Positions 11,679 through 44,776 of a stretch of DNA of 60,533 bases are shown piece by piece. Below the pieces are notes generated by a model. The model made no database searches. It was given only the letters and a program-made list of their open reading frames with translations, and was not told the DNA's origin. This stretch comes from a virus (lineage: Duplodnaviria; Caudoviricetes). The number at the start of each line of letters is the position of its first letter. Position 1 is the stretch's first letter. The stretch lies in the IMG/VR virus record IMGVR_UViG_3300021959_009735, positions 1 to 60,533 of that record; one strand, written 5' to 3'. The position numbers and the translations under genes were made by a program.

Positions 11679-11750
11679 CTAATTAAAGTCTAGTTAAACT
11701 GCGGTAAAACTATCAACCAGAACTACATACATAAATAGAGTAAGGTCTAT

Positions 11751-12470: not shown

Positions 12471-12478
12471 GTAGTTCT

Positions 12479-14247: not shown

Positions 14248-14249
14248 AA

Positions 14250-25506: not shown

Positions 25507-25507
<1 letters not shown>
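25268..25507 (-). CDS. stand-alone Smr-domain protein
   Basis: IDLHGLTHEEA, IITGNS, NLG. Confidence 0.8.
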
Positions 25508-27435
<1,928 letters not shown>

Positions 27436-27439
<4 letters not shown>

Positions 27440-27947: not shown

Positions 27948-28452
27948 ACCTTAGGGCAAGATTTTTTTACTTGATTTTAAGTGCTCTAGGCTTGGACTCT
28001 TCAGCGAATGGAATATCAATCAACAAGAGGCCATTATTAAATTTAGCATCTGCTTTCGATAGATCAAAGCGTGAGGAGAATCTGTAACCTAAGTTAAAAG
28101 ATCGACGGGAGATACCGTGAGCATGGTAGGTACGATCTCCAGTATCCTGGTCGTTAGCTTTTTCGTGTTTAATCCGAATGGATGAGTATTCGATCAGAAC
28201 TTCGATATCTTTCTTATCGATACCGGTACAGGCTACCTCGATGTGGATTCCATCGGGGTCTTCGTAGATGTCTACGGGATGTGAGATTTTCGTTTCTGCT
28301 GCGGGAGCGAAGGCTCCAGCGCTTTCGAAAAAGTTTCTTACGAGAATATCGAACGGAGTACGTTCGTGAAATCTTAATGCAGTCATGTCATTAATGGTTG
28401 CGGTACCCTGAGGTTACCTGGTTAATAAGTATATAACTACTTGCCCTAAGGT
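27948..28452. repeat. 13-bp perfect inverted repeat flanking hsp20
   Basis: accttagggcaag (27948-27960) and cttgccctaaggt (28440-28452). Confidence 0.85.
27967..28386 (-). CDS. small heat-shock protein Hsp20
   Basis: PVDIYE, GISRRSF, AKFNNGLLLIDIP. Confidence 0.92.
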   Translation of the reverse strand: MTALRFHERTPFDILVRNFFESAGAFAPAAETKISHPVDIYEDPDGIHIEVACTGIDKKDIEVLIEYSSIRIKHEKANDQDTGDRTYHAHGISRRSFNLGYRFSSRFDLSKADAKFNNGLLLIDIPFAEESKPRALKIK

Positions 28453-29148: not shown

Positions 29149-29551
29149 CCGGCTCTACCTTAATCCATTTATCTTCTGAGTCTAGTTTAAAAGCGCCGAT
29201 GAAGAATTGATTCCATTCATGCGGTGCAATCAAAGAGAGGAATAATGTTCTATTCTTTCTCTGATATAGGTAGTATGTATGTCCTTTTACGGGTATAAAT
29301 CGATAATCACTTTTATATACAAGCTTGTTCCATTCGAACTGTTCTATTAACTGACGGTACTCTTCTTTGATCTCTTCGTATTTAGTACGAAAATAATTAT
29401 TCGTCTTAACAGCCTGTTCTACTCTCCACCCTACAGTATCATCCGGCTTGATAGCCGGAGCTCCTACATTGCTTGCATACGGGAGGACACCCGGATTGTA
29501 TGCAACCATAGGATTGTCTGGGGAGCTTGTTTCTTCTTTCTTAGTGGCCAT
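29132..29551 (-). CDS. DUF2452-family protein
   Basis: LPYASNVGAPAI, PVKGHTYYLY, FLSLIAPHEW. Confidence 0.75.
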   Translation of the reverse strand: MATKKEETSSPDNPMVAYNPGVLPYASNVGAPAIKPDDTVGWRVEQAVKTNNYFRTKYEEIKEEYRQLIEQFEWNKLVYKSDYRFIPVKGHTYYLYQRKNRTLFLSLIAPHEWNQFFIGAFKLDSEDKWIKVEPDEPKG

Positions 29552-31856
29552 CTCTAAAGTTGTTTGCGATTTCAGGCGGAGCCTTAAGCGTTACGCCCGG
29601 TAGTACGAGATTAGTTTCCATAATCTCTTGAACGATAGGAGCAAAAGCCTCGGCCTGATCTTCGGCTACGTTAATGATTAACTGGTCATGAATCTGAGCT
29701 TGAACGATAGCATCGAAGCCAAGTTCTTTAGCCTTACGATTGATTTGAACAGCTGCACGGTTAACCACAGCAGCTGCTAAGCTCTGCAATTGAAAATTAA
29801 GCGTATTATTCAGACCGTTACGATAGTCTCGGTAGACCTGCATAACTTTCTCTTTGCCATACCGGCCGGTTAGTTCTTTACGGAAACGCCAGTCCATAAT
29901 CTGATCACCGAAGTGGCCATGAATTTTACGCACCTTATCAAGATGGCGGATACGGCCAACATAGTTAGTAATGAAGCCGTTAGACTTAACCTGTTTACGG
30001 GAGTTCTCTCTCCATTCCTTTAGCTGAGGAAATCCATCGAGGTAGCCAGCAACAAGCTTCTCAGCCTCTTTGGTAGGAATACCAAGTGTCATACCGAGAG
30101 CGTAGGCTTCCATGCCGTAGGCGATACCTAGCGAGTAAGCTTTAGCTTGATTACGCTTAACCGGATCAACCTTCTTAAGGAAGTTCGGAGCACTCTTATC
30201 GGCGGATACGCCCTGAAGTTTCTCGGTCTGAATAGCTACAGTAGAATAGAAGTCGTAGCCTTTGTTGAAGATCTCCTGCAGCTTAACGTCCCCGGTGACG
30301 GAGGCAAAGCAATGCGGCTCTAGAGATTCGTAGTCAGAGTCGATAACTTTACGGCCTTTGCCTGCGATCAGGAAGGCTCGAACAAGGTTATTATACCGGA
30401 CAACGATAGGAGCATCTTCACCGTCTTCCTTCGGCTTAGGTAGCTGCTGTGCATCAGAGCCGTATCGGCCGGAGACGGTACCATTCTGCTTGAAGTAGAA
30501 GTAGTATCGGCCGTCTTCGTGACCAAAGAGGAAACGCTCTACGTAGGTAGACTTGATCTTCAGCAGCTTATTGTAGATGCGAAGGTTTTCAGCCCACTCG
30601 TACTTCTTAGAAAGCTCCTCAAGCTGATCCATATCGAACTTATCACGGCCAGTCTTAGTCTTCGTAGTAGCTTTCTCGCCCATATAGTCGAAGACAATCT
30701 CACCAAGGTGGAGCTTAGACTGAATATTAACCCAATCGCCGTCGTTAGAGTCTTTCCACATCGAGGTAGAGATGCGAAGGATCTCGTTAGCCTCTAGATG
30801 CTCAAGCTTACCATCTTGCAAGAAGCTTTTGACCGGAGAGTCTTCTAACGTTTCGATATTCTTCTGAGTAAGAGAATGCTTGCCGGTCTTTTCGCTTCGA
30901 GGTAGAGGTAGAGAGTAACGCTTTACAAGCTCTTGAGCCCAGTTACCTTTATTCGAAGGAGGAAAGTTTTTAAGAGCAGTATCTACTACCCAGGCTTCTC
31001 CTTCTTTCGTACCGATAAGAGACTTGATCACGATCTCTTTATTCTTCTCAAGATCGGCCGTAATTTCATCATACGTTTTCTGAAGCAGCTCTAGGTCAAC
31101 CTCGACGCCGTACTCTTCCATAGGCACAGTTACCTCTCGGTAGATCGGCATAACCTCTTCTTCGAAGAAAAACTCCCACAAGCCTTCTTCTTTAAGCTGC
31201 GGAAGATAGAGGTTGCAGATACGAAGGGTAAGGTCGGTATCGGCAGATGCGTACTTAGATAGGATCTCAAGATCAGCTTTGTAGATCTGAAAGTCAGTCT
31301 TAGTTACGCTGCCTCCGTTGGCTTTGATCGACTCTTTGAGTTCGATCTGCTCTTTGTTAGCAGCCTCTTCGACATCCAGCCCTAGAGCCTCCTGGTTCAT
31401 AATCGCAATCGATTTCAAACCGAAAGGAGGACCAAAGCCAAAGGCACCGTCTTCTTTTACCGTATGAACAAGCATGGCGGTATCGACCCAGAGACTCGGA
31501 AGAAGATCAACTCCGTAGAAGTTTTTCGTATACCTCGTATCAAACGAGGCATTATGCATCACAAGCCTCTTACCTTCGAGTAGGGAGATGATTTTTCTCG
31601 CAATAGTATGAGCAGGTTTACCCTCTATTGACGTCTCAAGTAGCTCTTGCTGCTCAGGGTCCCACACCATAGTCGTCATATAGAAGCCGATGCCTTCTTC
31701 GCCGGAGACGGAGAAGCCTATGATCTGACCTTTACGCATATTAAGCGAGTCAGTCTCGGTATCGTAAGCAATTATATCTGAGGAGTTGATGTGTTGAATC
31801 AGGAGGTCGACGGTCTCTTTAGAGTCGACGGTATAGTATTTCTTTTCTAGCTGCAT
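29541..31856 (-). CDS. polA: family A DNA polymerase with 3'-5' exonuclease
   Basis: YDTET, HNASFD, YASAD; motif A DYESLE, motif B RNQAKAYSLGIAYGM, motif C IHDQ. Confidence 0.95.
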   Translation of the reverse strand: MQLEKKYYTVDSKETVDLLIQHINSSDIIAYDTETDSLNMRKGQIIGFSVSGEEGIGFYMTTMVWDPEQQELLETSIEGKPAHTIARKIISLLEGKRLVMHNASFDTRYTKNFYGVDLLPSLWVDTAMLVHTVKEDGAFGFGPPFGLKSIAIMNQEALGLDVEEAANKEQIELKESIKANGGSVTKTDFQIYKADLEILSKYASADTDLTLRICNLYLPQLKEEGLWEFFFEEEVMPIYREVTVPMEEYGVEVDLELLQKTYDEITADLEKNKEIVIKSLIGTKEGEAWVVDTALKNFPPSNKGNWAQELVKRYSLPLPRSEKTGKHSLTQKNIETLEDSPVKSFLQDGKLEHLEANEILRISTSMWKDSNDGDWVNIQSKLHLGEIVFDYMGEKATTKTKTGRDKFDMDQLEELSKKYEWAENLRIYNKLLKIKSTYVERFLFGHEDGRYYFYFKQNGTVSGRYGSDAQQLPKPKEDGEDAPIVVRYNNLVRAFLIAGKGRKVIDSDYESLEPHCFASVTGDVKLQEIFNKGYDFYSTVAIQTEKLQGVSADKSAPNFLKKVDPVKRNQAKAYSLGIAYGMEAYALGMTLGIPTKEAEKLVAGYLDGFPQLKEWRENSRKQVKSNGFITNYVGRIRHLDKVRKIHGHFGDQIMDWRFRKELTGRYGKEKVMQVYRDYRNGLNNTLNFQLQSLAAAVVNRAAVQINRKAKELGFDAIVQAQIHDQLIINVAEDQAEAFAPIVQEIMETNLVLPGVTLKAPPEIANNFRDGH

Positions 31857-33136: not shown

Positions 33137-33727
33137 TTACTTGCAAGCTATTTCTGATTCTTCCCATTCTTTTTCTGGACGAACGTTAGGGAAGTAAAAG
33201 CACTTTTTCTGTCCAGAAGTCTCCCATGTAATGTTCTTAAAAAAGCCGGTTGGAACATGTCCGCCCGTTTCTAAGATTTCATGACCATCTTTAAACTCTA
33301 CTACGATTTCTATAAGAAGGTTATCTTCATCATCCCATTTTCTTTCTTCAGCTTCCAATAGTCTCCATTCTCCTCTGTTCAGATTTTTATGCTGGAGTGT
33401 TGAGTTTAGGTACGAGAATGTTGTTTTGATATTCTCTTTGGAGTCCGAGAAATGGGCTGCAGGAGCCATGTGTCCCTTATCCCAAACATTTCCGTAGTAG
33501 TCGTTGTTGTCCGATGTATGGTAGTCTTTCTCTTTATAGAAGTTCATCGATCCTCTATCGGCATTTTTCGGACGATTGCTTGCCCTATATGTTACCCTTA
33601 GAGGCTGTTCACGTTCTTGAGAATACTCAACTACGTAGATACCTTTATCAACGGTTACTACATCCTGACCTTGGGCCAGGTTGATGAAAAAGGCTGTAAA
33701 GAATACAGTAAGAATAAGTCTTCGCAT
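33137..33727 (-). CDS. exported DNA/RNA non-specific endonuclease (NucA/EndoG family)
   Basis: Signal peptide; DKGHMAPAA, TFSYLN, LNRGEWRLLE, VPTGF. Confidence 0.9.
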   Translation of the reverse strand: MRRLILTVFFTAFFINLAQGQDVVTVDKGIYVVEYSQEREQPLRVTYRASNRPKNADRGSMNFYKEKDYHTSDNNDYYGNVWDKGHMAPAAHFSDSKENIKTTFSYLNSTLQHKNLNRGEWRLLEAEERKWDDEDNLLIEIVVEFKDGHEILETGGHVPTGFFKNITWETSGQKKCFYFPNVRPEKEWEESEIACK

Positions 33728-33751: not shown

Positions 33752-34660
33752 CTACTGCCTCAAGGTCTTATCCAACCTGATGTCCATATCTGTAAATACG
33801 TCTGGGATCCTATGAGCATGAGTTGCTCGCACCGGATTAATATCGATACCTCCTCTTCGAGTATACAGACAAGCAACCATTAGCTCATCTGGCTTATATG
33901 CTTCCATGAGATGGATAAATGTCATTTCGCAAACCTCCTCATGAAAATGATTTACCTTTCTATGACTTACAATATACTTTGCCAGAGAGGCTGGGTCTGG
34001 TATGAGAGAGGATCTAATGCTAATATAAATGTCTCCCCAATCCGGCTGGTTTGTAACACGGCAGTTTGATCTTAGAAGATCAGATTTGAACTTTGTGCTG
34101 AGGGGTGCGTCTAGAACTTCTTTAACTTTAAGCTGCGAAGCATCGGATTTGTATGAGTTAAACTCTAGACTATCTAGATCAACCAAGCTGCCTAGGTCCA
34201 TGAATCCGTATAGACCTTGAGATGCTTCAAAGATGGTTGTAAAAAGTTTTGCTTCAGCTTTAGTCTCTAAGAGTTCGGATAGATCTTTAGATACTCTTGT
34301 CTCAATCTCTCGAATAACCTCAGCAGTACTATCTCCCATTACCGTCATGTTAAACGAATTGAGATAGAGCTTGATCGACTTAGATTCTACATGGTATTGA
34401 GAATCGGCCGGACACCAGATCTTAAGCATACCTGAGACTGGAAGACCTTTGGAGGTGAGAGCCGAAACCTCGTATGCATTCCAAACATCTCCTCCTACGA
34501 AAGGCAGATTGTTTTCTTCGATGCCGTATGCTTCTCGATTGAGAATACGAGGAATCTTAACTAGAAGTTCTGGATCGTAGCTGTCTTTGTATCCGGCTCC
34601 GCCTACCTGGCCTAGGTGCTTTGCTGCAATTTCTGATACTGCGTTGTAATTATCTGACAT
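33752..34660 (-). CDS. queF: NADPH-dependent preQ0 reductase QueF (two-T-fold type)
   Basis: WNAYEVS, VESKSIKLYLNSFN, RSNCRVTNQPDWG, FHEE, YTRRGGIDINP. Confidence 0.95.
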   Translation of the reverse strand: MSDNYNAVSEIAAKHLGQVGGAGYKDSYDPELLVKIPRILNREAYGIEENNLPFVGGDVWNAYEVSALTSKGLPVSGMLKIWCPADSQYHVESKSIKLYLNSFNMTVMGDSTAEVIREIETRVSKDLSELLETKAEAKLFTTIFEASQGLYGFMDLGSLVDLDSLEFNSYKSDASQLKVKEVLDAPLSTKFKSDLLRSNCRVTNQPDWGDIYISIRSSLIPDPASLAKYIVSHRKVNHFHEEVCEMTFIHLMEAYKPDELMVACLYTRRGGIDINPVRATHAHRIPDVFTDMDIRLDKTLRQ

Positions 34661-34664
34661 AATT

Positions 34665-34817
34665 TTATTTTGTTTGTTTGTCGTAGATCGTCAGAGAAAT
34701 TCCCCAACGGAGCCATTGAAATTCAAGATAGAGGTACCACTTTGGCTCTGTAGTAATATAGAGAGCCGGTAGTATTTACCACTGATTTGAATAGGTGAAT
34801 GTTTCAAGTCTTCTCAT
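34665..34817 (-). pseudogene. small ORF interrupted by an in-frame TAA
   Basis: MRRLETFTYSNQW*ILPALYITTEPKWYLYLEFQWLRWGISLTIYDKQTK*; fills the gap; internal stop at 34776-34778. Confidence 0.55.
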
Positions 34818-35055
34818 TTTCTTCATCTAGTTTCTCCAAATATGCTTCGTAGATTCTATCAAAGTTTTCTTCTAAAAACCAAAACGGATAAGTCTTAACT
34901 TTTCCCTGATAGGTTTTATTGTGTACATACCTATCTTCCCACCTAACTTTCATTCTTTTCGCCTCCTTGAATACAGCAAGACCTACATTCGGTCCTGCCG
35001 GGGTGGTTAGATATTCGGCGAGACTGTACATCCTTTCCGGCTCTTCGTAATACAT
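34804..35055 (-). CDS. hypothetical protein
   Basis: 83-aa ORF. Confidence 0.7.
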   Translation of the reverse strand: MYYEEPERMYSLAEYLTTPAGPNVGLAVFKEAKRMKVRWEDRYVHNKTYQGKVKTYPFWFLEENFDRIYEAYLEKLDEENEKT

Positions 35056-35056
35056 T

Positions 35057-35575
35057 TCATTTAATATATTCCAAAATCTGATTTACTCTTTGCATAGGAG
35101 ATCCAGATACCGTTAAGAATCTATCTCCGTAATACTCTTTCAAAAGCCGTAGGAAAGTTTCATCAGCTAGCTTTCTCCAATCTTCATTCGTACTTCTTTC
35201 TCCATCATCTACGCTTGCAAACTCAATCGGAAAATAAACCAAATGAGTATATTCGTCTTTTACCTCTTCAAAGCAATCTTTTACATAGTTTAGCGTCTTA
35301 TCCTCTACATCTGTAATCAAGCTATATACTAGAGTATCAAGCATACACCTATCTAGTACAAGATTGAAAGGCATTAGAAGAGCCTTGAGGTGAAAAGCTA
35401 AGATAGCAAGCTGAGTCTCATCTGTACCTTCTTCATTGATCGGATATCCATACCGCATCACCGTACGAGTACTCTCGTTGATAAACTCGTACTTAGGAAG
35501 TTTATTCTTGAGAAGCTCATATACAGTCGTCTTCCCCGTACTAGATGAGCCTACTAATGCAATACGTTTAATCAT
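35057..35575 (-). CDS. P-loop nucleotide-kinase-like protein (AAA_28/NadR-like)
   Basis: GSSSTGKTT, LDRCMLD, DDGER. Confidence 0.85.
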   Translation of the reverse strand: MIKRIALVGSSSTGKTTVYELLKNKLPKYEFINESTRTVMRYGYPINEEGTDETQLAILAFHLKALLMPFNLVLDRCMLDTLVYSLITDVEDKTLNYVKDCFEEVKDEYTHLVYFPIEFASVDDGERSTNEDWRKLADETFLRLLKEYYGDRFLTVSGSPMQRVNQILEYIK

Positions 35576-35583
35576 AATACTTA

Positions 35584-35612
35584 AATATAAGATTAATCCA
35601 ATACAAAATCAA
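35584..35612 (-). promoter_or_regulatory. sigma70-like promoter
   Basis: TTGATT-17-TATATT, 8 nt before the kinase ATG. Confidence 0.6.
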
Positions 35613-35823
35613 CATTTGCATCTATTAAATTCCTACGAAACTCTTCTCTAACAGTAATAAAAGTATTGATTTCATCCTCTGAGTATTTTTCGAGGTTGTG
35701 TTTAACTTCATTGCGTAAGTATTGATCATAGTTCCATAATGCCGAAGCAATACTCAATCCCTTGGAGGCAAGTTGAAACTCTCTTTCTTCTTCTGGTAAG
35801 TTGAATTCTAGTGTTGCTTTCAT
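35593..35823 (-). CDS. conserved phage hypothetical protein
   Basis: MKATLEFNLPEE start; reassigned. Confidence 0.75.
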   Translation of the reverse strand: MKATLEFNLPEEEREFQLASKGLSIASALWNYDQYLRNEVKHNLEKYSEDEINTFITVREEFRRNLIDANVDFVLD

Positions 35824-35824
35824 A

Positions 35825-36346
35825 TTAATCCCACCATCCTCTGATTCCGGATCCATCTTCTTTGCCGGATCCAATAATTACTTTCCACATCTTATCAAAA
35901 ATCTCTTCTTCTATCTCATCGGCTCGTTTGAATACAGCTTTCGTATGAGGATCTTCGTTCGATAGGTATAGAAAGTTACCGTCCTCCTGCTTTTCAAACC
36001 ATTCTTCGAAAGGTCTGGGTTTCATAGGGCCGAGTTCTTTTTCTGCTAATTCTACAGCGTTGTCCATATTCTGAACGTACCAGACAAACAGTCTCATGGA
36101 ATTGACTCGTTTCTCTCTCATGTCTTCAACCTCGTTGACATACTTCTCTATCGCATCTGCGGTTAATTCTATTGAACGAGAGAACAGATTGAGATTGAAC
36201 CTATAGTCCCATGTTCTGAAGTTCCATACTTCTTTCCTAAAATGCCAGAAATTGCTCAGGCTGTAATATAGAGACTTGAAGAATATTTTCACTTTATTCC
36301 TTTTTACCAGTTTTTCTAGCTTTTTTATATCTAGATCCGACTTCAC
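35825..36346 (-). CDS. hypothetical protein
   Basis: WNFRTWDY..GWWD. Confidence 0.7.
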   Translation of the reverse strand: MKSDLDIKKLEKLVKRNKVKIFFKSLYYSLSNFWHFRKEVWNFRTWDYRFNLNLFSRSIELTADAIEKYVNEVEDMREKRVNSMRLFVWYVQNMDNAVELAEKELGPMKPRPFEEWFEKQEDGNFLYLSNEDPHTKAVFKRADEIEEEIFDKMWKVIIGSGKEDGSGIRGWWD

Positions 36347-36347
36347 T

Positions 36348-36896
36348 TTAACTACCTAAGTGTTTTTCTAAAAAGGCTGTCCATAGTCCGTGAGACAGCT
36401 TAGATAATATATGAAAAGTTCCGTCCATATCCAACCCTTCTCCTCTAACTGCCGCCTGTGCTATAATTCTACCTTCGTCTACACCTTCAGAGACATTATG
36501 CAGTACTGATCCAATCCATTCGTAGTTGCCCATCCAGGCCCTCATTTGAGGATCTTTTCCTTTGAGTTCTGGGTAGAGGGTGATGAGTCCGGGATGACCG
36601 TTGTATATGTCATAATTCTCGCACATCCACGGCGACATAATTCTAAGCCATCCATGTAACGTAATGATGGGATTGTAGTATCCGTAGAGTACGGCTCGTA
36701 ACTCTTCGTCCGAAGGTCGGTTAGAAACTTTGATAATTTCACCAGGATACTCCTCAATTAACTTAGGGTTGATTGTCCGAAGGTCTTCCGGACGTTCGTT
36801 TGTTATAATTAGGTCCGGCCAGTAGTCTAAATCTCTGGCTAGATTTCTAATCTCTGTACCGGTCTGGCTAAAGAAGGTTATCCAAGGTCGCTTCAT
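36348..36896 (-). CDS. PurN-like formyltransferase, probable preQ1 formyltransferase (DpdN-like)
   Basis: FFSQTG, HGWLRI, NGHPGLI, GSVLHNV..GVDEGRII; ATGA-coupled to the DpdA-like gene. Confidence 0.8.
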   Translation of the reverse strand: MKRPWITFFSQTGTEIRNLARDLDYWPDLIITNERPEDLRTINPKLIEEYPGEIIKVSNRPSDEELRAVLYGYYNPIITLHGWLRIMSPWMCENYDIYNGHPGLITLYPELKGKDPQMRAWMGNYEWIGSVLHNVSEGVDEGRIIAQAAVRGEGLDMDGTFHILSKLSHGLWTAFLEKHLGS

Positions 36897-37720
36897 ACTA
36901 CCGGATCAATCAAATCAAGAGTTCCGTTTACAAACCATCTGAATCTCTGCATATTGTACTTCATCATCTGAAGCTGTTCGTAAGATACCTCTGAGTTGAT
37001 GAGAGTGAAGAGCTTTTCAGACGCTTTATCCCACAGTCCTTGATCAGAGTACTCAATATGCTTGAGACCGTGTACAACCGGGTTGGATGTATCTAGGGAA
37101 TAAATCCAATCCATGTCATCCGCCTCTTTGTAGAACATAAACTCTTGAGGTAGAGAACATCCAAGAAGGTGGTGCTTACGGTTTGTATTGATTACTCCGT
37201 TAGCCTTGAGTTTGCTTAGTAGAGTAACCCTACCGAGCATCCAGCTTACAAGCTTATTAGAATGCGGGACTAGATCTTCATAGAGAGAAAAATCAAACGG
37301 GAATGCAATCATATCGATATCAAGCTTATCAAACTCCTGATACAGGCTTGCAATCTCAATATAGGATTGACCTTGGATGACCGCTATCTTTTTGCCCGGA
37401 AGATCAGAATACTTCTCCATCCACGTTCTAACGTTTCTCAAAGTACCAGAAGAATCTTCTAGAACATCTGGAATGATATACCAGGTCGGTCTAAACTTCT
37501 CAATCCACTCTGCATACCGATCCATATCGAATGCAGTACCGAGTTCGAAAATTGAGTTATCTAGAATAATTTCTCGACCGGCATCTCTAGCTTTTTCGAA
37601 CATAGCCAGATATTCTGGACTTTCGTCGAAGAGGTGAACTAGAGCGTAATCGTAGTCTGTAAACTTTTGAACTTCTTCAAAAACACTTATTGTGCTCTCA
37701 TGAGCAATCTTAATCGGCAT
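36893..37720 (-). CDS. TGT-fold 7-deazaguanine transglycosylase (DpdA-like)
   Basis: ILDNSIFE, PDV, AVIQG, HHLLG, SLDTS motifs; inside the Que cluster. Confidence 0.78.
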   Translation of the reverse strand: MPIKIAHESTISVFEEVQKFTDYDYALVHLFDESPEYLAMFEKARDAGREIILDNSIFELGTAFDMDRYAEWIEKFRPTWYIIPDVLEDSSGTLRNVRTWMEKYSDLPGKKIAVIQGQSYIEIASLYQEFDKLDIDMIAFPFDFSLYEDLVPHSNKLVSWMLGRVTLLSKLKANGVINTNRKHHLLGCSLPQEFMFYKEADDMDWIYSLDTSNPVVHGLKHIEYSDQGLWDKASEKLFTLINSEVSYEQLQMMKYNMQRFRWFVNGTLDLIDPVV

Positions 37721-37922
37721 CTTCTATATCTAATTCTGAAATGGAGTTAATTGAGTCTGTGTACTCTTTAGTGACTTTATCAAGAGCACTGAGAGCCTCT
37801 TGCAGCTGTTGAGATAAAATCGAGTTAATTGCCTCTACCGCTACCTTATACGGAACTACGTCTATATTGAGAGTAGGGTGATGAATTTTATTCTCTTCTA
37901 AAGTTTTGTATACGTCATTCAT
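37710..37922 (-). CDS. hypothetical protein
   Basis: 70-aa ORF overlapping both neighbours. Confidence 0.65.
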   Translation of the reverse strand: MNDVYKTLEENKIHHPTLNIDVVPYKVAVEAINSILSQQLQEALSALDKVTKEYTDSINSISELDIEDAD

Positions 37923-38440
37923 TTGATTTGGCTGAGTTCTTCTTCGGTAAAGAATTGACTCAGATTAGGTGAAAAGTAATTGATGCTTTTCATAACCTTC
38001 TTATCTCGAGTACGATATACAATGTAGTATTCGCCTACTTTCTCGAAGTGGCAAGGCTCACCTTGCTGTTCGGCTCGTACACGTACTGTCTCTTCTGCTT
38101 CTTCTACCGAGGTACAAACTTTACTCATATTGGAGGCCTGTACTTCGGCGTAAGCCGGAAGCAGCTTATCCTTCAGTCCAAATGCCATGGTAGCATTACC
38201 TACTGCAACATACAGTAGATCGCAAATAGCATCTAGTACCGATACGATGTCTTTTTCTTGGACTGCCTCAGCCAACTCCTCAGTTTCTTCTTTGATGAAG
38301 TTGATAACGAAGTCAGTGATTTTCTGTTCTGGTACAATAGCCCGATAGTAATTAGGCTTGCCGAAAGTGTGATTAAAGATTTCAACTTCATCGACGAATG
38401 GTACGTTAGGGTTGGTTGGTAGTGTTTTCTGTTCTGTCAT
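37919..38440 (-). CDS. MazG-like nucleoside-triphosphate pyrophosphohydrolase
   Basis: EETEEL..LDAICDLLYV, EVQASNMSK. Confidence 0.85.
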   Translation of the reverse strand: MTEQKTLPTNPNVPFVDEVEIFNHTFGKPNYYRAIVPEQKITDFVINFIKEETEELAEAVQEKDIVSVLDAICDLLYVAVGNATMAFGLKDKLLPAYAEVQASNMSKVCTSVEEAEETVRVRAEQQGEPCHFEKVGEYYIVYRTRDKKVMKSINYFSPNLSQFFTEEELSQIK

Positions 38441-38771
38441 AATCATCTTGTAATCTTACAATGTCATCTTCACCAAAATACGAACCAGTTTGCACTTCTA
38501 CAAATGCTGCGGGAATATTTCCTTTATTCCAAGCTCGGTGATGCACACCTAGTCCAATCTCGATGGTATCTCCATCAACTAAAGTGAATTCATGACCTTG
38601 ACGGATAACTGTCAAGGTTCCTCCAACACAGGTCCAGACTTCTTTTCGCTTAGTATGGTACTGGTAGGAGAGTCTCTGACCTGGGTTGACGAAGATCTCT
38701 TTTACCTTACAATACGTAGTATCGTGAAGGACTGTAAAGAATCCCCAGGGTCGCTGTTCTAGTTTCGACAT
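38406..38771 (-). CDS. cupin, mannose-6-phosphate isomerase type II-like
   Basis: RPWG, PGQRLSYQYH, EVQTGSYFGEDDIVR. Confidence 0.85.
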   Translation of the reverse strand: MSKLEQRPWGFFTVLHDTTYCKVKEIFVNPGQRLSYQYHTKRKEVWTCVGGTLTVIRQGHEFTLVDGDTIEIGLGVHHRAWNKGNIPAAFVEVQTGSYFGEDDIVRLQDDYDRTENTTNQP

Positions 38772-39475
38772 TTTCCTGCTAGTTCGATGTTCTTATAAAA
38801 TTCTGCTCTAGCACTATCTTCATCTAGGAAGCACCCCGAAAGCTGTGCCGTTTGCATAGAAGCTCCCTGGTGCTTAACCCCTCGGCATGAGACGCAGTTG
38901 TGTGTAGCATCTACCATGACGGCTACTCCAAGATTATTTTCACAAATCTTATCGATTGCGTTATGGATGGCAACCGTAAGCTGCTCTTGGATTGCTCCTC
39001 GACGGGCAAAGTGCTCTACAATTCGATTGAGCTTAGATAGTCCAACTACCTTACCATCTTTGTTCGGCACATAAGCTACGCTTACATGACCTTTGATGGT
39101 CTGGTGATGATGTGAGCACATCGATGTAATCGGAATATTAGATTCCTGAACAAGGCCGGTATATCCATCTGCCGGGAAAGCTGTAATCGCATCTAGAGGT
39201 TCGAATCGACCTCTCCATAGATCGTTTACATATGCTTTTGCAACCCGAGTAGGAGTATCGGCCGAGTTCGGATCATTTTTCCAATCGCATCCTAGAGCTT
39301 CTAGAAAGCGTCCGAAATGAACGGCTGCCTCTCTAATAATTTCATCTTTTTCTTCGGTAGAAAGATGGGCATTCTCTCTTTGATCTGAAAGCTGCCTGTA
39401 TTTGAGTTGAGTACTGATACCGTTTGCAAAGCCGGCAGGTACAATCTCTGTATCTGATATAAACTTTTTAGCCAT
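38759..39475 (-). CDS. folE: GTP cyclohydrolase I
   Basis: DTPTRVAK, SMCSHH, VGLSKLNR, IQE, HNCVSCRG. Confidence 0.95.
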   Translation of the reverse strand: MAKKFISDTEIVPAGFANGISTQLKYRQLSDQRENAHLSTEEKDEIIREAAVHFGRFLEALGCDWKNDPNSADTPTRVAKAYVNDLWRGRFEPLDAITAFPADGYTGLVQESNIPITSMCSHHHQTIKGHVSVAYVPNKDGKVVGLSKLNRIVEHFARRGAIQEQLTVAIHNAIDKICENNLGVAVMVDATHNCVSCRGVKHQGASMQTAQLSGCFLDEDSARAEFYKNIELAGKCRN

Positions 39476-39476
39476 A

Positions 39477-39668
39477 TTAATCTTTCAATAACGTTTTATC
39501 GGATGATCCGGTATACGTGTCAGTTGATATATTATACGAAATATTCTCGTCTAATACAACTGATTGTAGTTTTTCTTTCAGTTCATCCCACTGTTTAGGT
39601 GTGGTCGTATAGTCGTTGCATGCGGCTACAAATCCTTGCATCCACAAGACAAATTCTCTAGGTGTCAT
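39477..39668 (-). CDS. hypothetical protein
   Basis: MTPREFVLWMQGF phage-type N-terminus. Confidence 0.7.
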   Translation of the reverse strand: MTPREFVLWMQGFVAACNDYTTTPKQWDELKEKLQSVVLDENISYNISTDTYTGSSDKTLLKD

Positions 39669-39670
39669 CT

Positions 39671-40447
39671 TTAAACCTCTCTTTGAGTATCAAATGCGAT
39701 GATATGTGGACGTCCGGTAAACCTGTACTGATGCTTTGTACACCAGTCCATCACCATCGGATAGATTCGGATAAGCTCCTCTCTTTCATCTCCAGGAGGC
39801 ATGATCCAAATCCGCTCTCTTGGTACATTCAGTTCAGCCATAAATTCCTGAATCTCATTCCAGGTATCAGGATCTTCTACCGGATTGACAACTACCTTCA
39901 TATGGTAGTTATCATGATACTCGATAGATTGCTTGATAGATTCTTTATTCAGCCTGAACTTATTATGCACTTTAACAAATCGTTCATCTACGACTTGTCC
40001 TTGAGGAGTTATAGCTCCAATTTCCGGTACACTGTTGCTAAACTTCGGAGAGAAGGAAACTAGGTCTAACGGGTAGTCTGTCTCTAGGAAATGACTACCT
40101 TCGGTCTCCATCGTAATGATAATTCCTCTTTCGTTAGCAAAATGAGTAAGCTCATTTACTAGAGCACCATGCATAGAAGGCGAACCTCCCGTTAGCATCA
40201 TCTCCGTAATGTGGGGATATTCATCGTAGATGTCGATAATATCTTGAAAGGTATATTTACCCTTCTCTGGATGGATGCTGGTGTACCAGCTATCGCACCA
40301 TCCTCCTTCTCCGAAAAAGCACCGGTGTGTACATCCGGTAGTTCTTACTGCGATTGTTGGTAGCCCTGCTCTACTACCTTCTGATTGGATGCAGGCATAA
40401 AGTTCAACGATAGGGAGAACTTTAGAGTAGTCTTCTATTCTATTCAT
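39671..40447 (-). CDS. queE: 7-carboxy-7-deazaguanine synthase (radical SAM)
   Basis: IQSEG..G, RTTGC, CDS, TGG, ETEG, SPK; Cys motif CX3CX7C. Confidence 0.92.
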   Translation of the reverse strand: MNRIEDYSKVLPIVELYACIQSEGSRAGLPTIAVRTTGCTHRCFFGEGGWCDSWYTSIHPEKGKYTFQDIIDIYDEYPHITEMMLTGGSPSMHGALVNELTHFANERGIIITMETEGSHFLETDYPLDLVSFSPKFSNSVPEIGAITPQGQVVDERFVKVHNKFRLNKESIKQSIEYHDNYHMKVVVNPVEDPDTWNEIQEFMAELNVPRERIWIMPPGDEREELIRIYPMVMDWCTKHQYRFTGRPHIIAFDTQREV

Positions 40448-40450
40448 ATG

Positions 40451-40480
40451 GTTGTTTTTAAAGTGGTGCTACGACACTCT
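40451..40480 (-). ncRNA. preQ1-I-like riboswitch aptamer
   Basis: AGAGTG-TCGTAGCAC-CACTTT-AAAAACAAC: P1 stem, UCGUAG..C loop, A-rich tail able to pseudoknot; 3 nt before the queE ATG. Confidence 0.7.
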
Positions 40481-40483
40481 GTC

Positions 40484-40948
40484 TTAGGGTTGATAAATAG
40501 CTGAGTTTTTGTTATGCTCGTAGAATTCTAGCTTTTTCACTCTAACTCTACCCTCAGTTTCTTTATCTACGAAGGTATTAATCTTCTCGTATAAATATTC
40601 GGCGAACCTCTCTGCTCCTACGGCCGGGACGACTCTTAGTTGAATGATTCCTTGTTCGTCTAGAAGTTTAAATCTTCCAAGAGCCGGATCATCGTCGGCA
40701 ATAATAACTGTATGGTCTAGCAAATGGTCAAACCATTCTTTAGGAGACATGCCTTCAATTTTATTGACTGCACGTTTCATTCCTCCAAAATCCCAGACCC
40801 AGTTTCGATGATCTAAATCACCTTCAAACCATACCCGGAAAGAAACTCCGTAACCGTGTAGGTATTTGCAATGTGTTGTTACTGCCTTCCATTGACGAAA
40901 GCAAGTAGAAAATCCGTCGAATAACTTAGTAGATGTGAATTTTGCCAT
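40484..40948 (-). CDS. queD: 6-carboxytetrahydropterin synthase
   Basis: CKYLHGY, DFGG, LDH, GAERFA, FYEH. Confidence 0.92.
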   Translation of the reverse strand: MAKFTSTKLFDGFSTCFRQWKAVTTHCKYLHGYGVSFRVWFEGDLDHRNWVWDFGGMKRAVNKIEGMSPKEWFDHLLDHTVIIADDDPALGRFKLLDEQGIIQLRVVPAVGAERFAEYLYEKINTFVDKETEGRVRVKKLEFYEHNKNSAIYQP

Positions 40949-40954
40949 AACTGA

Positions 40955-41833
40955 TTATTTTAATTCTTTAATATAAGAACGAAGTCTATCTTGAGGCAAC
41001 CATTCAAGGTGTTTTAGTGAATCATCTGACTCACGTAATGTCTCCTGGTAGTTACCTTTCTGGTTCGGAACGTATACTTTTTTACATCCAAATCTTTCAA
41101 TGAACATATCTGCTACTTCATTAATAGAGTAGTTATGACCGGTCCCTAGTTCCCATTCAAAAATATCTTCCGGAAGTACTCCTAGACCAATACGAAGTAA
41201 CCCTTGTACAATATCGTCAACGTGTGTAAAATCTCTTCTCTGCTCTCCATCTCCGACAATAGTAATAGGTTCTTCGGTGTTGACCTGATGTCTCCACTTT
41301 CCTATAACCGCCGCGAAAGGATCGTCAACGAGTTCTCCTTCACCGTACACGTTGTAGAATCTAGCAATCTGGGCATCTACTCCGTATACGGTTCTGTACA
41401 TTTTGCATAGATCTTCCCCTACTTTTTTTGCAGTAGCATAAGGGGAAATTTCCGGGTCATGCCATCTAGAGGAAGAACCTGCGTATACAACTCTAGCATT
41501 TCCTATCATTCGAGCAAAGTCTAAGACCTCTTGAGTGCCGGTAGCATTAACTCTAAAGAACTCTGATGGATCATCGAACGATGGTTGAATACGGCTGAGA
41601 GCAGCCAGGTGGAAGATAACATCGTACCTATCGTGTGCCCGATGCCTATGAAAAAATTCTAGATCGAAAATCTCTTCTATATCTCCGTAAAAGTATTTAC
41701 AAAGTTTGTTTTTGGGAAGAGTGCTGGGGTGAGATCTATCATCCAAGCTATGGACATCGTAACCTGATTTAACCAGGGCGTTAACGAGGTGCTTACCTAT
41801 AAAGCCTTCACCGCCCGTAACTAAAACCTTCAA
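40955..41833 (-). CDS. NAD-dependent epimerase/dehydratase
   Basis: TGGEGFIG, HLAA, YATAK, RFYNVYG, RDFTHV; TTG start at 41833. Confidence 0.9.
   Translation of the reverse strand: MKVLVTGGEGFIGKHLVNALVKSGYDVHSLDDRSHPSTLPKNKLCKYFYGDIEEIFDLEFFHRHRAHDRYDVIFHLAALSRIQPSFDDPSEFFRVNATGTQEVLDFARMIGNARVVYAGSSSRWHDPEISPYATAKKVGEDLCKMYRTVYGVDAQIARFYNVYGEGELVDDPFAAVIGKWRHQVNTEEPITIVGDGEQRRDFTHVDDIVQGLLRIGLGVLPEDIFEWELGTGHNYSINEVADMFIERFGCKKVYVPNQKGNYQETLRESDDSLKHLEWLPQDRLRSYIKELK
40970..40999 (-). promoter_or_regulatory. sigma70-like promoter for queD, embedded in the epimerase 3' end
   Basis: TTGCCT-18-TATATT. Confidence 0.5.
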
Positions 41834-41835
41834 TC

Positions 41836-42390
41836 TTAATCCTCTAGATAATTTAAAAGTTTGTCGCCGTCTTCCGATTCTACGGCTAAGTCTCCGTCGA
41901 AATCTGCTCTCCATATTACACACTCAAACGTTTCTGGGTAAACTGTTCTTACGTTAATAGTATTGTTTGCAATGTTTCTGATTTGAATAATATCGTAGGG
42001 TGTTATACCGTCCATCTCGATATCGCCTACAATGCCGGGACATTCTTGAGTATGGTAGAGATTAACCGTTGGTGCGTTCATATACCATTGGAAGTAAGCA
42101 TCCGCATCCTTGTCGGTTACAGTCCCATCTCCATCGTAATCGGCCCTCCAAAGAGCGCATGCATATTCAACTCCGCTTTGAGCTACTCCTTCAACGCTAT
42201 TACCTAAAGATAGGTCTAATATCAAGGAAGCATTAAAGACTCCGTGATTCTTATTTGAAGGAGAAGGTTTACCGAGGTCAACTCTCTGTACGGTGGGACA
42301 GTCTTCTGGTCCTACTTCTTTATCCTCTGAGTTAACTGAGTCGCATGCTACGAGGCCACAAATGGAAAGGATGAGCAATAACTTTTTCAT
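41836..42390 (-). CDS. lipoprotein with dockerin/EF-hand-like repeats
   Basis: Lipobox LVAC; ADYDGDGTVTDKD, GDIEMDGITPYD, ADFDGDLAVESED. Confidence 0.78.
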   Translation of the reverse strand: MKKLLLILSICGLVACDSVNSEDKEVGPEDCPTVQRVDLGKPSPSNKNHGVFNASLILDLSLGNSVEGVAQSGVEYACALWRADYDGDGTVTDKDADAYFQWYMNAPTVNLYHTQECPGIVGDIEMDGITPYDIIQIRNIANNTINVRTVYPETFECVIWRADFDGDLAVESEDGDKLLNYLED

Positions 42391-42429
42391 AACAAGTAAT
42401 TTTATTATAAATAGCACTGCTTTACCTCT

Positions 42430-42702
42430 TTATCTACGGTGATCGGTTAAAATCGCATGAATAGACTTATATGTCATATTGATGACAATTGCAGCTCCAA
42501 GACCAAGTACGAATGGAACTTCTGATAGATCAAAGACAACAAGTCCAGCCGCTGTGTAGATTGCTGTAAAGATCAAATCAACGAATACCCCTCCTAGAGC
42601 CATCTGCATACCCTCTTTGGGCTTCTTCTGGCTATAGATAATAATTACTGCGTTAATTGGTACGAGAAAAAAGAGCAGTCCTACCCCTACGAAAAAACTC
42701 AT
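42430..42702 (-). CDS. 3-TM membrane protein
   Basis: Three hydrophobic helices. Confidence 0.65.
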   Translation of the reverse strand: MSFFVGVGLLFFLVPINAVIIIYSQKKPKEGMQMALGGVFVDLIFTAIYTAAGLVVFDLSEVPFVLGLGAAIVINMTYKSIHAILTDHRR

Positions 42703-42803
42703 TGATCACTCCATGTAGATTTATCTTGGTTTACATACCAGATAGCCCAGATACTGATACCTGCGGCGAAGATAATTGCTCCTACTATGATTGCTGCGTA
42801 CAT
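42699..42803 (-). CDS. 34-aa single-TM protein (not in ORF track)
   Basis: MYAAIIVGAIIFAAGISIWAIWYVNQDKSTWSDQ; abuts thyX, ATGA overlap downstream. Confidence 0.6.
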   Translation of the reverse strand: MYAAIIVGAIIFAAGISIWAIWYVNQDKSTWSDQ

Positions 42804-43436
42804 TTAATATTCTAAAGCTTTTGAAATGATTGGAAATTGTTCTTTGAAGATAGCTTTTATTGCTTTGGCTACCTCTTGAATTTCTTTTTGAGCATGACCA
42901 TCGTCTCTTAGCTCGAGAAAATGAATCCAAGAACGAATAGATCCGGTCATATGAATTTTTGTTTTGGTGGCAAGTGGAAGAACAAAACGGGCTGTCTCTC
43001 TTGCTACACCTGATGCGATTAATGCGCTGTATAATTCTGAGGCTGCACCGAAATGTAGCTTAACCATTTCGTCAATAATCTGTTCCCTCTCGGGATCAAA
43101 ACGGGTAGTAGAAGACTGCCGGTTATCTTCGGCCTGCTTTCTAAACTCGATTGGCTCAAAAATATCTTTTAGAAGATTAACATCTTGATACCTCTGAGAG
43201 AATTCCTGAAATGTAAAAGAACGATGGCGGATCAGCTGAATGCCGATAGCTTTTGAGGTGTCAATCTCTACGGTCATATAGGAATGCTCAAATGGAGACC
43301 AATGTCGATGTTTGATCAGATAGTTTAGAAGCCCTTCCGGCTGTCCTCTTTTATCTTCTCTTTTCGATGATACTCGAGCAACCTCCACAATATGTTCTTC
43401 CGCCTGTGGAGTGGTGGCCATAAGCTTTACGTTCAT
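42804..43436 (-). CDS. thyX: FAD-dependent thymidylate synthase
   Basis: HWSPFEH, QLIRHRSFTFQEFSQRY, ETARFVLP, HAQKEI. Confidence 0.96.
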   Translation of the reverse strand: MNVKLMATTPQAEEHIVEVARVSSKREDKRGQPEGLLNYLIKHRHWSPFEHSYMTVEIDTSKAIGIQLIRHRSFTFQEFSQRYQDVNLLKDIFEPIEFRKQAEDNRQSSTTRFDPEREQIIDEMVKLHFGAASELYSALIASGVARETARFVLPLATKTKIHMTGSIRSWIHFLELRDDGHAQKEIQEVAKAIKAIFKEQFPIISKALEY

Positions 43437-43582
43437 ACTAATTCCTCCCAAATTCCTACTAACTCGCTTAGTACTAGTACACCGGCACCGATAACTAAAT
43501 CAAACGGAAGGAGGACGTATGCAACAATCCTCACTCCCGATTTGATAAAGCTAACAATCTGGTGCCATTTCTGATTCGGCAT
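43433..43582 (-). CDS. 49-aa membrane protein (not in ORF track)
   Basis: MPNQKWHQIVSFIKSGVRI...ELVGIWEELV; GGAG SD; ATGA overlap with thyX. Confidence 0.7.
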   Translation of the reverse strand: MPNQKWHQIVSFIKSGVRIVAYVLLPFDLVIGAGVLVLSELVGIWEELV

Positions 43583-43595
43583 TTTCTCCAGATTC

Positions 43596-44474
43596 TTATC
43601 CTGCATATCCTGCTAGCACCTCCTCTGCATGAGCTTTGGCTACTTCCCAAGAGACCGGACCAGTTTCGTCTTCGTACTGTACCGGGTCTGGGCGTCCAAG
43701 TTTAATAAAAGCTTCGATGCGTTCTACCGAAGAAGCCGACTTATAGTCAGAGTTTCCGGATGGGAACGGCTTATAGGAAGTGTTAGTCAGAGAATATACC
43801 GTATCGAAATCTAATCCAAGATTTTCACAGCATGCTAGACCATCTTCCAGAATGGTAAACTTATCTCCATCAAGGTAGGGAGTAGAATACGTTACCTTGT
43901 CTGAATCCCAGTTTCCGACCAGGAAGGCTTCGTAATCTGCATCTCTAAACTCTTGACGGCAGTCTGGATAGATTGCATGGTCTCCGGCATGAATACCGAG
44001 TGCGATTTCAACCGGACAATCCCATTCGTTTGCAATCGAAAGAGCTACGGACTGGATGATAGAAGAGAAGATCTTATTCCGGTTCGGTACAACCGTTGCC
44101 TTCATATTGTCTTCGGCGTAATGCCCTTCAGGTACATCTTCTCCGCCAGAGACTAGATTAGAATTTAAAAGATCAGATAGCCCATCCAGCTTGATAATCT
44201 GATGCTTAATTGGATAGAACATTCTCTTACCGGGATTCTGCTCTAATGCATGTCCATTCAGGTAACGTACAAGATCGGAAGCTCGGTTTAGTTCTACTCT
44301 ATGTTTCTGTCCGTAATCAAAGGATAGGGCTGTTACGTCATATCCTGCGTTAAGGAGGTGTAAGAGTAGGGTGGAGGAGTCCATCCCTCCGCTAAGACTT
44401 AGTACTGCTTTTTTTGGAAATAAATCGGCTTGCATTTGTTTAACCGTTGGTGAGTCAGTATTGTGATATTGCAT
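43596..44474 (-). CDS. queC: 7-cyano-7-deazaguanine synthase
   Basis: SGGMDSS, FDYGQKH, VPNRN, HAGDHAIYPDCR. Confidence 0.95.
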   Translation of the reverse strand: MQYHNTDSPTVKQMQADLFPKKAVLSLSGGMDSSTLLLHLLNAGYDVTALSFDYGQKHRVELNRASDLVRYLNGHALEQNPGKRMFYPIKHQIIKLDGLSDLLNSNLVSGGEDVPEGHYAEDNMKATVVPNRNKIFSSIIQSVALSIANEWDCPVEIALGIHAGDHAIYPDCRQEFRDADYEAFLVGNWDSDKVTYSTPYLDGDKFTILEDGLACCENLGLDFDTVYSLTNTSYKPFPSGNSDYKSASSVERIEAFIKLGRPDPVQYEDETGPVSWEVAKAHAEEVLAGYAG

Positions 44475-44506: not shown

Positions 44507-44776
44507 TTACTGTAAAGATTCAACTGCATCTACAAGATCAGACTTTTTCATGGGTCCGATTACGGTTGCGTATGTTTCCATATTTTCTTTGAGAAATACT
44601 GTGGTAGGAATGCTTTTAATTCCGTACTTCTCCGATAGCCCTTCAGTGTCTTCATCTATATCGATAGTTTCAAAAACTACTCCGGTATCGGACATTTGCT
44701 TTTGAACTTCGTCAAAAACTGGTTTATAAATTCGGCATGGTCCGCACCATGAGGCTGTAAATCTAAGTACTTTCAT
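44507..44776 (-). CDS. thioredoxin
   Basis: WCGPC, IPT. Confidence 0.93.
   Translation of the reverse strand: MKVLRFTASWCGPCRIYKPVFDEVQKQMSDTGVVFETIDIDEDTEGLSEKYGIKSIPTTVFLKENMETYATVIGPMKKSDLVDAVESLQ

Follow-up and report, generated by a model that had tools for sequence, protein, structure and literature searches.

Immuto-type DpdA3 cluster in an uncultured Caudoviricetes virus and a possible nucleotide-level route to complete 7-deazaguanine DNA

The 60,533-nucleotide stretch analyzed here (the window; positions 1-60,533 of the IMG/VR virus record IMGVR_UViG_3300021959_009735; Duplodnaviria, Caudoviricetes) carries at 33752-44474, on the minus strand, a cluster of 7-deazaguanine genes. Judged by orthology, this is very probably a DpdA3 system of the type found in Flavobacterium phage immuto, replacing genomic guanine with 7-(formylamino)methyl-7-deazaguanine (fdPreQ1). 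The fuller reading that we favor adds to this identity that guanine is exchanged on free nucleotides before replication; we give the two together a probability of about 0.45. The pre-replicative part is plausible and strengthened by comparison, but unproven. A small P-loop kinase is strictly linked to the transglycosylase DpdA3 across DpdA3 lineages and is not seen beside DpdA1 or DpdA2 in the loci examined, and the DpdA3 barrel is predicted to be minimal; these comparisons speak for a functional link of DpdA3 with the kinase.

The initial annotation had predicted formyl-preQ1 DNA and had proposed that the kinase phosphorylates the modified nucleotide, with MazG depleting dGTP. The first part is well supported by orthology and shared gene order with immuto, whose DNA is fully converted from G to fdPreQ1; the pre-replicative route is neither shown nor refuted. 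How a phage replaces every G is the central mechanistic question here, and this point is worth more than the cluster itself, which is an ordinary, widespread relative of a characterized system.

Gene content of the cluster and orthology with phage immuto

Gene calls are based on the open reading frame (ORF) list and on Pfam and PHROGs scans. Every gene named in the initial annotation is present within 33752-44474 (minus strand), and the coupling claimed for the genes of the enzyme with the tRNA-guanine transglycosylase (TGT) fold and of the formyltransferase is borne out by an ATGA overlap, comprising the stop codon of the first gene and the start codon of the second. The components of the system, and the polymerase downstream of it, are the following:

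43596..44474, minus strand: QueC, preQ0 synthase, 292 aa (Pfam QueC 4.5e-36; phrog_1550 2e-42; PP-loop SGGMDS)
40484..40948, minus strand: QueD, 6-carboxytetrahydropterin (CPH4) synthase, 154 aa (Pfam PTPS 4.7e-15; phrog_2389 2.1e-37)
39671..40447, minus strand: QueE, radical-SAM 7-carboxy-7-deazaguanine (CDG) synthase, 258 aa (phrog_2076, QueE-like, 1.8e-48; the Pfam Radical_SAM match, 7e-06 and 26.7 bits, is under the Pfam cut-off)
38759..39475, minus strand: FolE, GTP cyclohydrolase I, 238 aa (Pfam GTP_cyclohydroI 5.3e-44)
37919..38446, minus strand: MazG/HisE-like NTP pyrophosphohydrolase, 175 aa (Pfam PRA-PH 1.7e-08, MazG 0.0034; phrog_671 5.9e-29)
36893..37720, minus strand: DpdA3, minimal TGT-fold 7-deazaguanine transglycosylase, 275 aa (phrog_19058 7.3e-45)
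36348..36896, minus strand: DpdN, PurN-like formyltransferase, 182 aa (Pfam Formyl_trans_N 1.3e-08)
35057..35575, minus strand: AAA_28 P-loop kinase of the nucleoside/nucleotide type, 172 aa (Pfam AAA_28 4.5e-14)
33752..34660, minus strand: bimodular QueF, preQ0 to preQ1 reductase, 302 aa (Pfam QueF_N 1.6e-32, QueF 2.7e-17; motif ESKSIKLY and catalytic Cys200 present)
29541..31856, minus strand: family A DNA polymerase (PolA) with 3'-5' exonuclease (Pfam DNA_pol_A 4.1e-55)

A complete preQ1 pathway is thus encoded, as FolE, QueD, QueE, and QueC, together with QueF, are all matched in Pfam or PHROGs. Counted from 44474, the order is QueC, a 57-aa ORF, ThyX, small ORFs with a 193-aa lipoprotein-like ORF, an epimerase, QueD, QueE, a 63-aa ORF, FolE, a cupin, the MazG/HisE-like protein, a 70-aa ORF, DpdA3, DpdN, a 173-aa ORF, a 93-aa ORF, the AAA_28 kinase, an 83-aa ORF, and QueF (33752); downstream of QueF lie a non-specific endonuclease, an HNH gene, and the family A polymerase. 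From the epimerase gene through the 83-aa ORF, genes either overlap or are separated by at most 36 nt.

In the DNA of immuto, Cui et al. (2023; PMC10516641) report no dG peak and 345,000 fdPreQ1 per 10^6 nt, that is, complete replacement; the same source names the transglycosylase subfamily DpdA3 and the formyltransferase DpdN, and its dataset DS1 lists the DpdA of immuto as DpdA3. The window proteins are 59.6% (DpdA3, over 96% of the length), 53.7% (DpdN; gp67), 62% (kinase; gp68), and 64.2% (QueF) identical to those of immuto. Both phages share the order QueD, QueE, FolE, NTP pyrophosphatase, DpdA3, DpdN, kinase ("thymidylate kinase" in immuto), QueF, PolA, with GroES/GroEL beyond PolA. The differences are a cupin, a sugar epimerase, a 173-aa ORF, a 193-aa ORF, and an HNH gene inserted in the window (shared by 0-16 related loci); a phosphoribosyltransferase (PRTase) gene and a DUF4494 gene at the corresponding place in immuto; and QueC and ThyX, which adjoin the cluster in the window, unlike in immuto. 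Among 50,697 phage records, megablast found no match to the whole cluster, and there is no similarity to immuto at the nucleotide level. fdPreQ1 has been measured only in the DNA of immuto; for the window lineage it is predicted.

The formyltransferase retains residues expected of its family. N99, H101, and D140 of DpdN are invariant in 41 sequences and align with the catalytic N-x-H and D of PurN, matches to PurN structures reach 2.6e-08, and an N-terminal FFSQTG-E loop is also invariant.

As its components are orthologous to those of immuto, whose G is all fdPreQ1, the window system is of a known type, and the cluster is an uncultured addition to an already characterized, widespread system. 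At least 518 viral contigs carry a DpdA3-family cluster; at 90% identity the family falls into 3515 protein clusters, at 50% it has 1379 representatives, and one protein cluster, 96% identical to the window DpdA3, occurs on 22 contigs. With the window cluster, fdPreQ1 genomes are to be expected more widely in uncultured phages of marine and fresh waters.

The Que genes belong to the tRNA queuosine pathway, and the cluster could in principle serve queuosine-type modification of tRNA, or supply the host with preQ1, rather than act on DNA. We hold this to be very improbable: a measured DNA modification goes with the orthologous cluster of immuto, DpdA3 is far from tRNA TGTs (10-14% identity; no match to Pfam TGT), and DpdN has no role in queuosine synthesis.

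The kinase neighbor of DpdA3 and the predicted barrel

For the analysis of related loci we used the 80 best immuto-clade loci, with DpdA3 identities of 52-63%; the counts refer to loci with enough flank. Homologs of the kinase are found in 64/64 loci, of QueF in 59/59, of PolA in 52/53, of MazG in 69/74, of FolE in 67/71, and of DpdN in 67/72. The kinase is as constant in the cluster as QueF, and more constant than DpdN. Homologs of the non-specific endonuclease occur in 38/80 loci, of the cupin in 16/71, and of the epimerase in 2/80, and none of the 80 has a homolog of the 173-, 193-, 93-, 90-, 70-, 69-, or 195-aa ORFs or of the HNH ORF; we class the cupin and the epimerase, like the lineage-specific ORFs, as accessory.

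The same linkage is seen across cultured phages, where a small P-loop kinase adjoins DpdA3 in six lineages out of six (immuto, CP220, CC_R7, phiST, MA9V-3, BSP7); the phages SE131, RHph_I1_18, and Ahp1 are outside this comparison. The immuto kinase, gp68, belongs to AAA_28. In Campylobacter phage CP220, gp055 (HD and AAA_33), gp056 (DpdA3, 38% identical to that of the window), and gp057 (AAA_28, 28% identical to the window kinase) form a three-gene island, which has the tail-sheath and tail-tube genes on either side and is kilobases away from the Que genes. The order in CC_R7 is QueC, DpdA3, AAA_28 kinase, polymerase. In Cellulophaga phage phiST it is MazG (CGPG_00068), DpdL, CGPG_00066, DpdA3; here, CGPG_00066 (L013:18382-18861) scores 9.4e-07 as an AAA_18 P-loop kinase, at the Pfam cut-off, and is left without a function in the part of Cui et al. 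(2023; PMC10516641) that deals with this locus. In Chryseobacterium phage MA9V-3, an AAA_18 kinase (L096:4528-4998) abuts DpdA3, with a dCTP-deaminase/dUTPase-like gene upstream, and in BSP7, the 187-aa protein BSP7_056 (Walker A only) stands directly before DpdA3, which precedes PolA. In hhalign, the phiST kinase resembles the AAA_28 group in the P-loop only; hence, different kinases fill one place beside DpdA3.

The profile of alignment A1 missed the DpdA3 proteins listed by Cui et al. in PA5oct and SE131, and PA5oct was inspected via its annotation. The listed protein, QCG76197 (L118:16986-18608), has 540 aa and no Pfam match; its neighbors are a weak GT1-like protein, DpdL, a short epimerase-like protein, and a PRTase.

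Other DpdA subfamilies served as controls. A Walker-A heuristic (an ORF of 130-260 aa that has an N-terminal Walker A motif and lies no more than 3 kb away on the same strand) is positive in 54/55 DpdA3 loci and in 0/17 DpdA1 loci. In the clusters of 9g (DpdA1) and VH7D (DpdA2), where seven proteins were scanned (the two DpdAs, QueD, and four neighbors), no kinase or MazG Pfam family was found.

The AlphaFold2 model of the window kinase (mean predicted local distance difference test, pLDDT, 93.7) was compared with 48,161 PDB representatives. The nearest structure is the ribosylnicotinamide-kinase domain of NadR (Z 18.2 and 17.4), followed by human deoxyguanosine kinase (Z 16.2, all 172 residues aligned), thymidylate kinases (Z 13.8-16.0), Drosophila deoxynucleoside kinase (15.4), and deoxyadenosine kinases (15.0, 14.4). 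Polynucleotide kinases are absent among the 50 best matches, although families beyond these 50 may still match. The modeled fold appears to be that of a small-molecule nucleoside or nucleotide kinase, and suits a step of the salvage type better than a helper ATPase acting on DNA.

The 275-aa DpdA3 matches no Pfam family, Pfam TGT included, and its family profile reaches bacterial DpdA (7ui4) in the PDB sequence search at a non-significant E of 0.88; sequence methods barely detect the relationship to TGTs. The AlphaFold2 model (pLDDT 96.1, from an alignment of 105 sequences) is confident: the top 50 Foldseek matches listed against PDB are all TGTs (best E 1.1e-6; TMq 0.64), and VIA-align gives Z 17.3-18.3 with about 235 residues aligned at a root-mean-square deviation of about 3 A. 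The structures matched best are tRNA-guanine transglycosylases, together with archaeosine TGT and bacterial DpdA 7ui4 (Z 17.3, 235 residues); identity to tRNA TGTs is 10-14%. According to the model, DpdA3 is a (beta/alpha)8 TGT barrel of the TGT/DpdA superfamily.

D54 and D85 of DpdA3 are invariant in alignments A1 and A2, and D210 is invariant in A1 and conserved in at least 90% of A2 (105 representatives). In bacterial DpdA, the catalytic aspartates are Asp95 (general acid/base), Asp130 (base recognition), and Asp256 (nucleophile), and an insertion of 128 residues, Ins8 (residues 256-383), is tied to DNA handling (PMC10164549). The match of D54/D85/D210 to Asp95/130/256, made by order, spacing, and the hidden Markov model match at E 0.88, points to a putative equivalence. 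About 65 residues follow D210, the putative nucleophile, and there is a single Cys. DpdA3 covers only about 235 residues of the 360-413-residue chains of bacterial TGT and DpdA. The large insertion of TGTs after beta8 is the Zn subdomain. With about 65 residues after D210, one Cys, and about 235 of the 413 residues of 7ui4 aligned, DpdA3 is without a counterpart of Ins8 and, as modeled, is a pared-down TGT barrel.

Isoelectric point and net charge were considered as a clue to DNA binding and set aside: DpdA3 is acidic (4.78), yet so are DpdA1 of 9g (5.64) and the window PolA (5.53).

DpdA3 is fused to DpdN in P0169 and P0214 (447 aa) and to QueF in P0271, P0272, and P0274 (531-568 aa), therefore base synthesis, exchange, and formylation appear to be tightly coupled. 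A further long form, P0273 (634 aa), is a DpdA3 with an intein and LAGLIDADG domains.

The five related loci without DpdN have, in all five cases, a GNAT-type gene between DpdA3 and QueF. At L072:5528-7054 and L081:6918-8444 this is a 508-aa GNAT protein (Acetyltransf_1, about 3e-11) followed by a Glyoxalase_4 protein; L079:3327-4853 is assigned by size only, unscanned, from ORFs of equal sizes and order to those of L072 and L081; at L085:6123-7079 the AAA_28 kinase carries a fused, weak GNAT domain, and L092:10554-11009 is an ORF with a weak GNAT match that overlaps the kinase gene at its end. This variant suggests an undescribed N-acyl-, perhaps acetyl-, preQ1 DNA base. Since GNAT stands in place of DpdN, and once is fused to the kinase, the amine-tailoring step seems to be tied to the kinase.

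Guanine exchange on nucleotides or in DNA

By homology, FolE, QueD, QueE, and QueC would make preQ0 from GTP, QueF would reduce it to preQ1, DpdA3 would exchange guanine for the deazaguanine at a deoxyribose, and DpdN would formylate the aminomethyl group. On the nucleotide-level route that we favor, MazG would turn dGTP into dGMP, both removing the competitor and supplying the substrate; DpdA3 would then swap guanine for preQ1 on dGMP or deoxyguanosine, DpdN would formylate its product, the AAA_28 kinase would phosphorylate the modified nucleotide, and the nucleoside diphosphate kinase of the host together with the phage PolA would complete the route. The normal substrate of PurN, glycinamide ribonucleotide, is a primary amine (an aminomethyl group) on ribose-5-phosphate, hence a nucleotide would, by analogy, be a chemically natural substrate for DpdN. 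More broadly, complete 7-deazaguanine genomes may come from a hydrolase of the MazG or HD kind, DpdA3, a kinase, and a polymerase, with a tailoring enzyme as an option. We put at not far below an even chance that DpdA3 is the first TGT-superfamily enzyme to act on a free deoxynucleotide or deoxynucleoside, and that genomes with fdPreQ1, with dDG (2'-deoxy-7-deazaguanine), and with dADG (2'-deoxy-7-amido-7-deazaguanine) are made pre-replicatively. If so, this would be a new substrate class for the TGT superfamily; the published post-replicative model for complete 7-deazaguanine genomes would be wrong; and MazG, DpdA3, and the kinase, with the Que genes, would form a candidate set of tools for the in vivo production of fully deazaguanine-substituted DNA.

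Among the phages covered by the relevant parts of Cui et al. (2023; PMC10516641), 100% replacement is seen only in DpdA3 phages (immuto, phiST, CP220), with at most 30% for other DpdA types; DpdA3 failed to function in their E. coli assay; and 7-amido-7-deazaguanine (ADG) nucleoside in the cytoplasm of CP220-infected cells is relayed there. As points for the nucleotide-level route we count the complete replacement, the failure in E. coli, the cytoplasmic ADG nucleoside, the kinase linkage with its non-orthologous displacement, the frequent NTP pyrophosphatase, and the pared-down barrel. A hydrolase of the required kind is known from S-2L, where MazZ (MazG-HisE fold) has been shown experimentally to convert dGTP to dGMP, feeding a nucleotide-level base-replacement pathway (PMC8342488); the MazG-like protein of the window and its 40-sequence profile gave nothing significant against PDB, and no sequence link to S-2L MazZ. 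In the literature searched, the term "DpdA3" is confined to Cui et al. (2023) and some unrelated yeast papers, and no paper proposing or testing a nucleotide-level route for DpdA3 was found.

Several points weigh against nucleotide-level exchange. To our knowledge, all characterized members of the TGT/DpdA superfamily act on a polynucleotide, and none is known to act on a mononucleotide. Gp055 of CP220, with its HD and AAA_33 domains, has what we take to be the architecture of HD-Pnk end-healing enzymes, and need not be a dGTPase; located directly upstream of DpdA3 (L010:10862-11893), it may combine a dGTP hydrolase with a kinase, or else be an end-healing enzyme of the HD-Pnk type. The linkage of MazG (69/74) is looser than that of the kinase, and in PA5oct MazG is about 40 kb from DpdA3. 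The immuto-like neighborhood is one of nucleotide and replication metabolism (ThyX, thioredoxin, ribonucleotide reductase, PolA), where the kinase and MazG could be general-purpose enzymes. The DpdA1 controls are few, with 17 loci, of which many are near-identical to 9g. The fusions found join DpdA3 to DpdN or QueF, not to the kinase, and are in themselves neutral as to DNA or nucleotide: the longer relatives of DpdA3 are QueF fusions and the intein form, with no kinase fusions, and no longer relative of the window kinase was found at E <= 1e-5, which is weak evidence. Substrate specificity is not readable from these sequences. The bacterial DpdA study is consistent with a superfamily confined to polynucleotides (PMC10164549), and the authors who measured the modification propose, in the parts of their paper on its mechanism, post-replicative exchange (PMC10516641).

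Following the latter proposal, which Cui et al. (2023; PMC10516641) extend in those parts to all DpdA families, DpdA3 would swap guanine for preQ1 or formyl-preQ1 in replicated DNA with near-complete efficiency, DpdN would formylate the free base or the base in DNA, and the kinase and MazG would belong to the general nucleotide supply, or else the P-loop protein would be an ATP-using helper of DpdA3, similar to DpdB. Bacterial DpdA indeed acts on DNA and requires the DpdB ATPase (PMC10164549). The TGT fold of DpdA3, its three conserved aspartates, which follow the catalytic residues of bacterial DpdA in order and spacing, the location of the window cluster within a region of replication and nucleotide metabolism, and the wide occurrence of MazG genes in phages all agree with this scheme, and we regard it as clearly possible, at somewhat less than even odds. 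However, it does not account for a small kinase that abuts DpdA3 in all examined lineages, the isolated CP220 island included, and not DpdA1 or DpdA2; for non-homologous kinases in one place; for a DpdA3 without the large DNA-handling insertion of bacterial DpdA; or for DpdA3 alone giving no DNA modification in E. coli.

Nucleotides could also be modified without a transglycosylase step, if a PRTase makes the preQ1 ribonucleotide, which kinases and ribonucleotide reductase convert to the dNTP, leaving DpdA3 to mop up residual G or to some other role. A PRTase gene is indeed present in the immuto cluster between QueE and FolE (gp60, L001:9840-10235, Pribosyltran 1e-08), in phiST (CGPG_00045, about 17 kb from DpdA3), and in PA5oct, with homologs in 59/80 related loci, and the window encodes a class II-like ribonucleotide reductase (53887-55740). 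We nevertheless consider this salvage scheme improbable: the universally conserved component is DpdA3, the PRTase could equally recycle released guanine, and neither tblastn with immuto gp60 nor Pfam scans of the ORFs found a PRTase in the window, which belongs to a record of about 37% completeness.

Neighboring genes and known base-replacement systems

CheckV estimates the completeness of the 60.5-kb record at about 37%, and the minus strand carries all genes of the window except one. Within the cluster, the initial annotation passed over the cupin, the NAD-dependent epimerase/dehydratase, ThyX, and several small or lineage-specific ORFs; these proteins, and the endonuclease adjoining QueF, are:

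42804..43451, minus strand: ThyX, flavin-dependent thymidylate synthase (Pfam Thy1 1e-49)
40955..41923, minus strand: NAD-dependent sugar epimerase/dehydratase (Pfam Epimerase 6.4e-45)
38406..38771, minus strand: cupin of the mannose-6-phosphate isomerase C-terminal type (Pfam MannoseP_isomer 8e-28)
33137..33727, minus strand: non-specific DNA/RNA endonuclease (Pfam Endonuclease_NS 1.3e-22)

The endonuclease is a possible source of dNMPs from host DNA. The cupin and the epimerase are probably outside the deazaguanine pathway, and may belong with two large glycan-synthesis blocks (5628-19288 and 49990-53868), which contain several family 1 and family 2 glycosyltransferases, NeuB (2.3e-74), a CMP-sugar-type cytidylyltransferase, a polysaccharide pyruvyl transferase, methyltransferases, HtrL/YibB-like proteins, and a GlcNAc transferase.

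Nucleotide metabolism is further represented by the ribonucleotide reductase-like protein at 53887-55740, with a B12-dependent insertion domain, a dCMP deaminase (1473-1913), and a thioredoxin (44507-44776). Other genes encode ribosomal protein S21 (23856-24059; 4.3e-12), GroEL and GroES homologs, as in immuto, with an Hsp20 small heat-shock protein (25507-27439 and 27967-28386), and, at the record edge, a tRNA-Leu with anticodon TAG (74-148). A 649-aa protein (47942-49891) combines a cohesin domain with a Por C-terminal sorting domain of the type IX secretion system (T9SS), which points to a Bacteroidota host.

Of the related DpdA3 systems, those of CP220 (dADG) and phiST (dDG) are both reported to give 100% replacement. 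Like the window, they have a DpdA3 homolog (38% and 18% identity, respectively) that has a small P-loop kinase and a nucleotide phosphohydrolase for neighbors; unlike the window, they end at CDG-derived bases, without QueF and DpdN. The phiST kinase, of AAA_18, is of another family than the AAA_28 kinase of the window, and the CP220 hydrolase is an HD domain fused to AAA_33, as opposed to a MazG/HisE-like protein.

The bacterial DpdA/DpdB system and phage DpdA1 and DpdA2, which are post-replicative DNA transglycosylases (PMC10164549, PMC6884629), share the TGT TIM-barrel with DpdA3. The latter is shorter, with 275 aa against 413 residues in the 7ui4 chain, 317 aa in DpdA1 of 9g, and 458 aa in DpdA2 of VH7D; unlike bacterial DpdA, it has one Cys and nothing corresponding to Ins8; and no kinase neighbor is present in the examined DpdA1 and DpdA2 loci, unlike in DpdA3 loci.

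Nucleotide-level base replacement is familiar from other phages. In the hydroxymethylcytosine (hmC) route of T4, gp56 is the dCTPase, gp42 the dCMP hydroxymethylase, and gp1 the kinase. The proposed route differs from this and from the 2-aminoadenine (dZ) pathway of S-2L (DatZ, MazZ, PurZ) in that its base-remaking enzyme comes from a family known only on polynucleotides, and in that it is read from gene content. With both it would share an NTP pyrophosphatase of the MazG-HisE type, a base-remaking enzyme, a nucleotide kinase, and an adjoining polymerase (for S-2L, PMC8342488).

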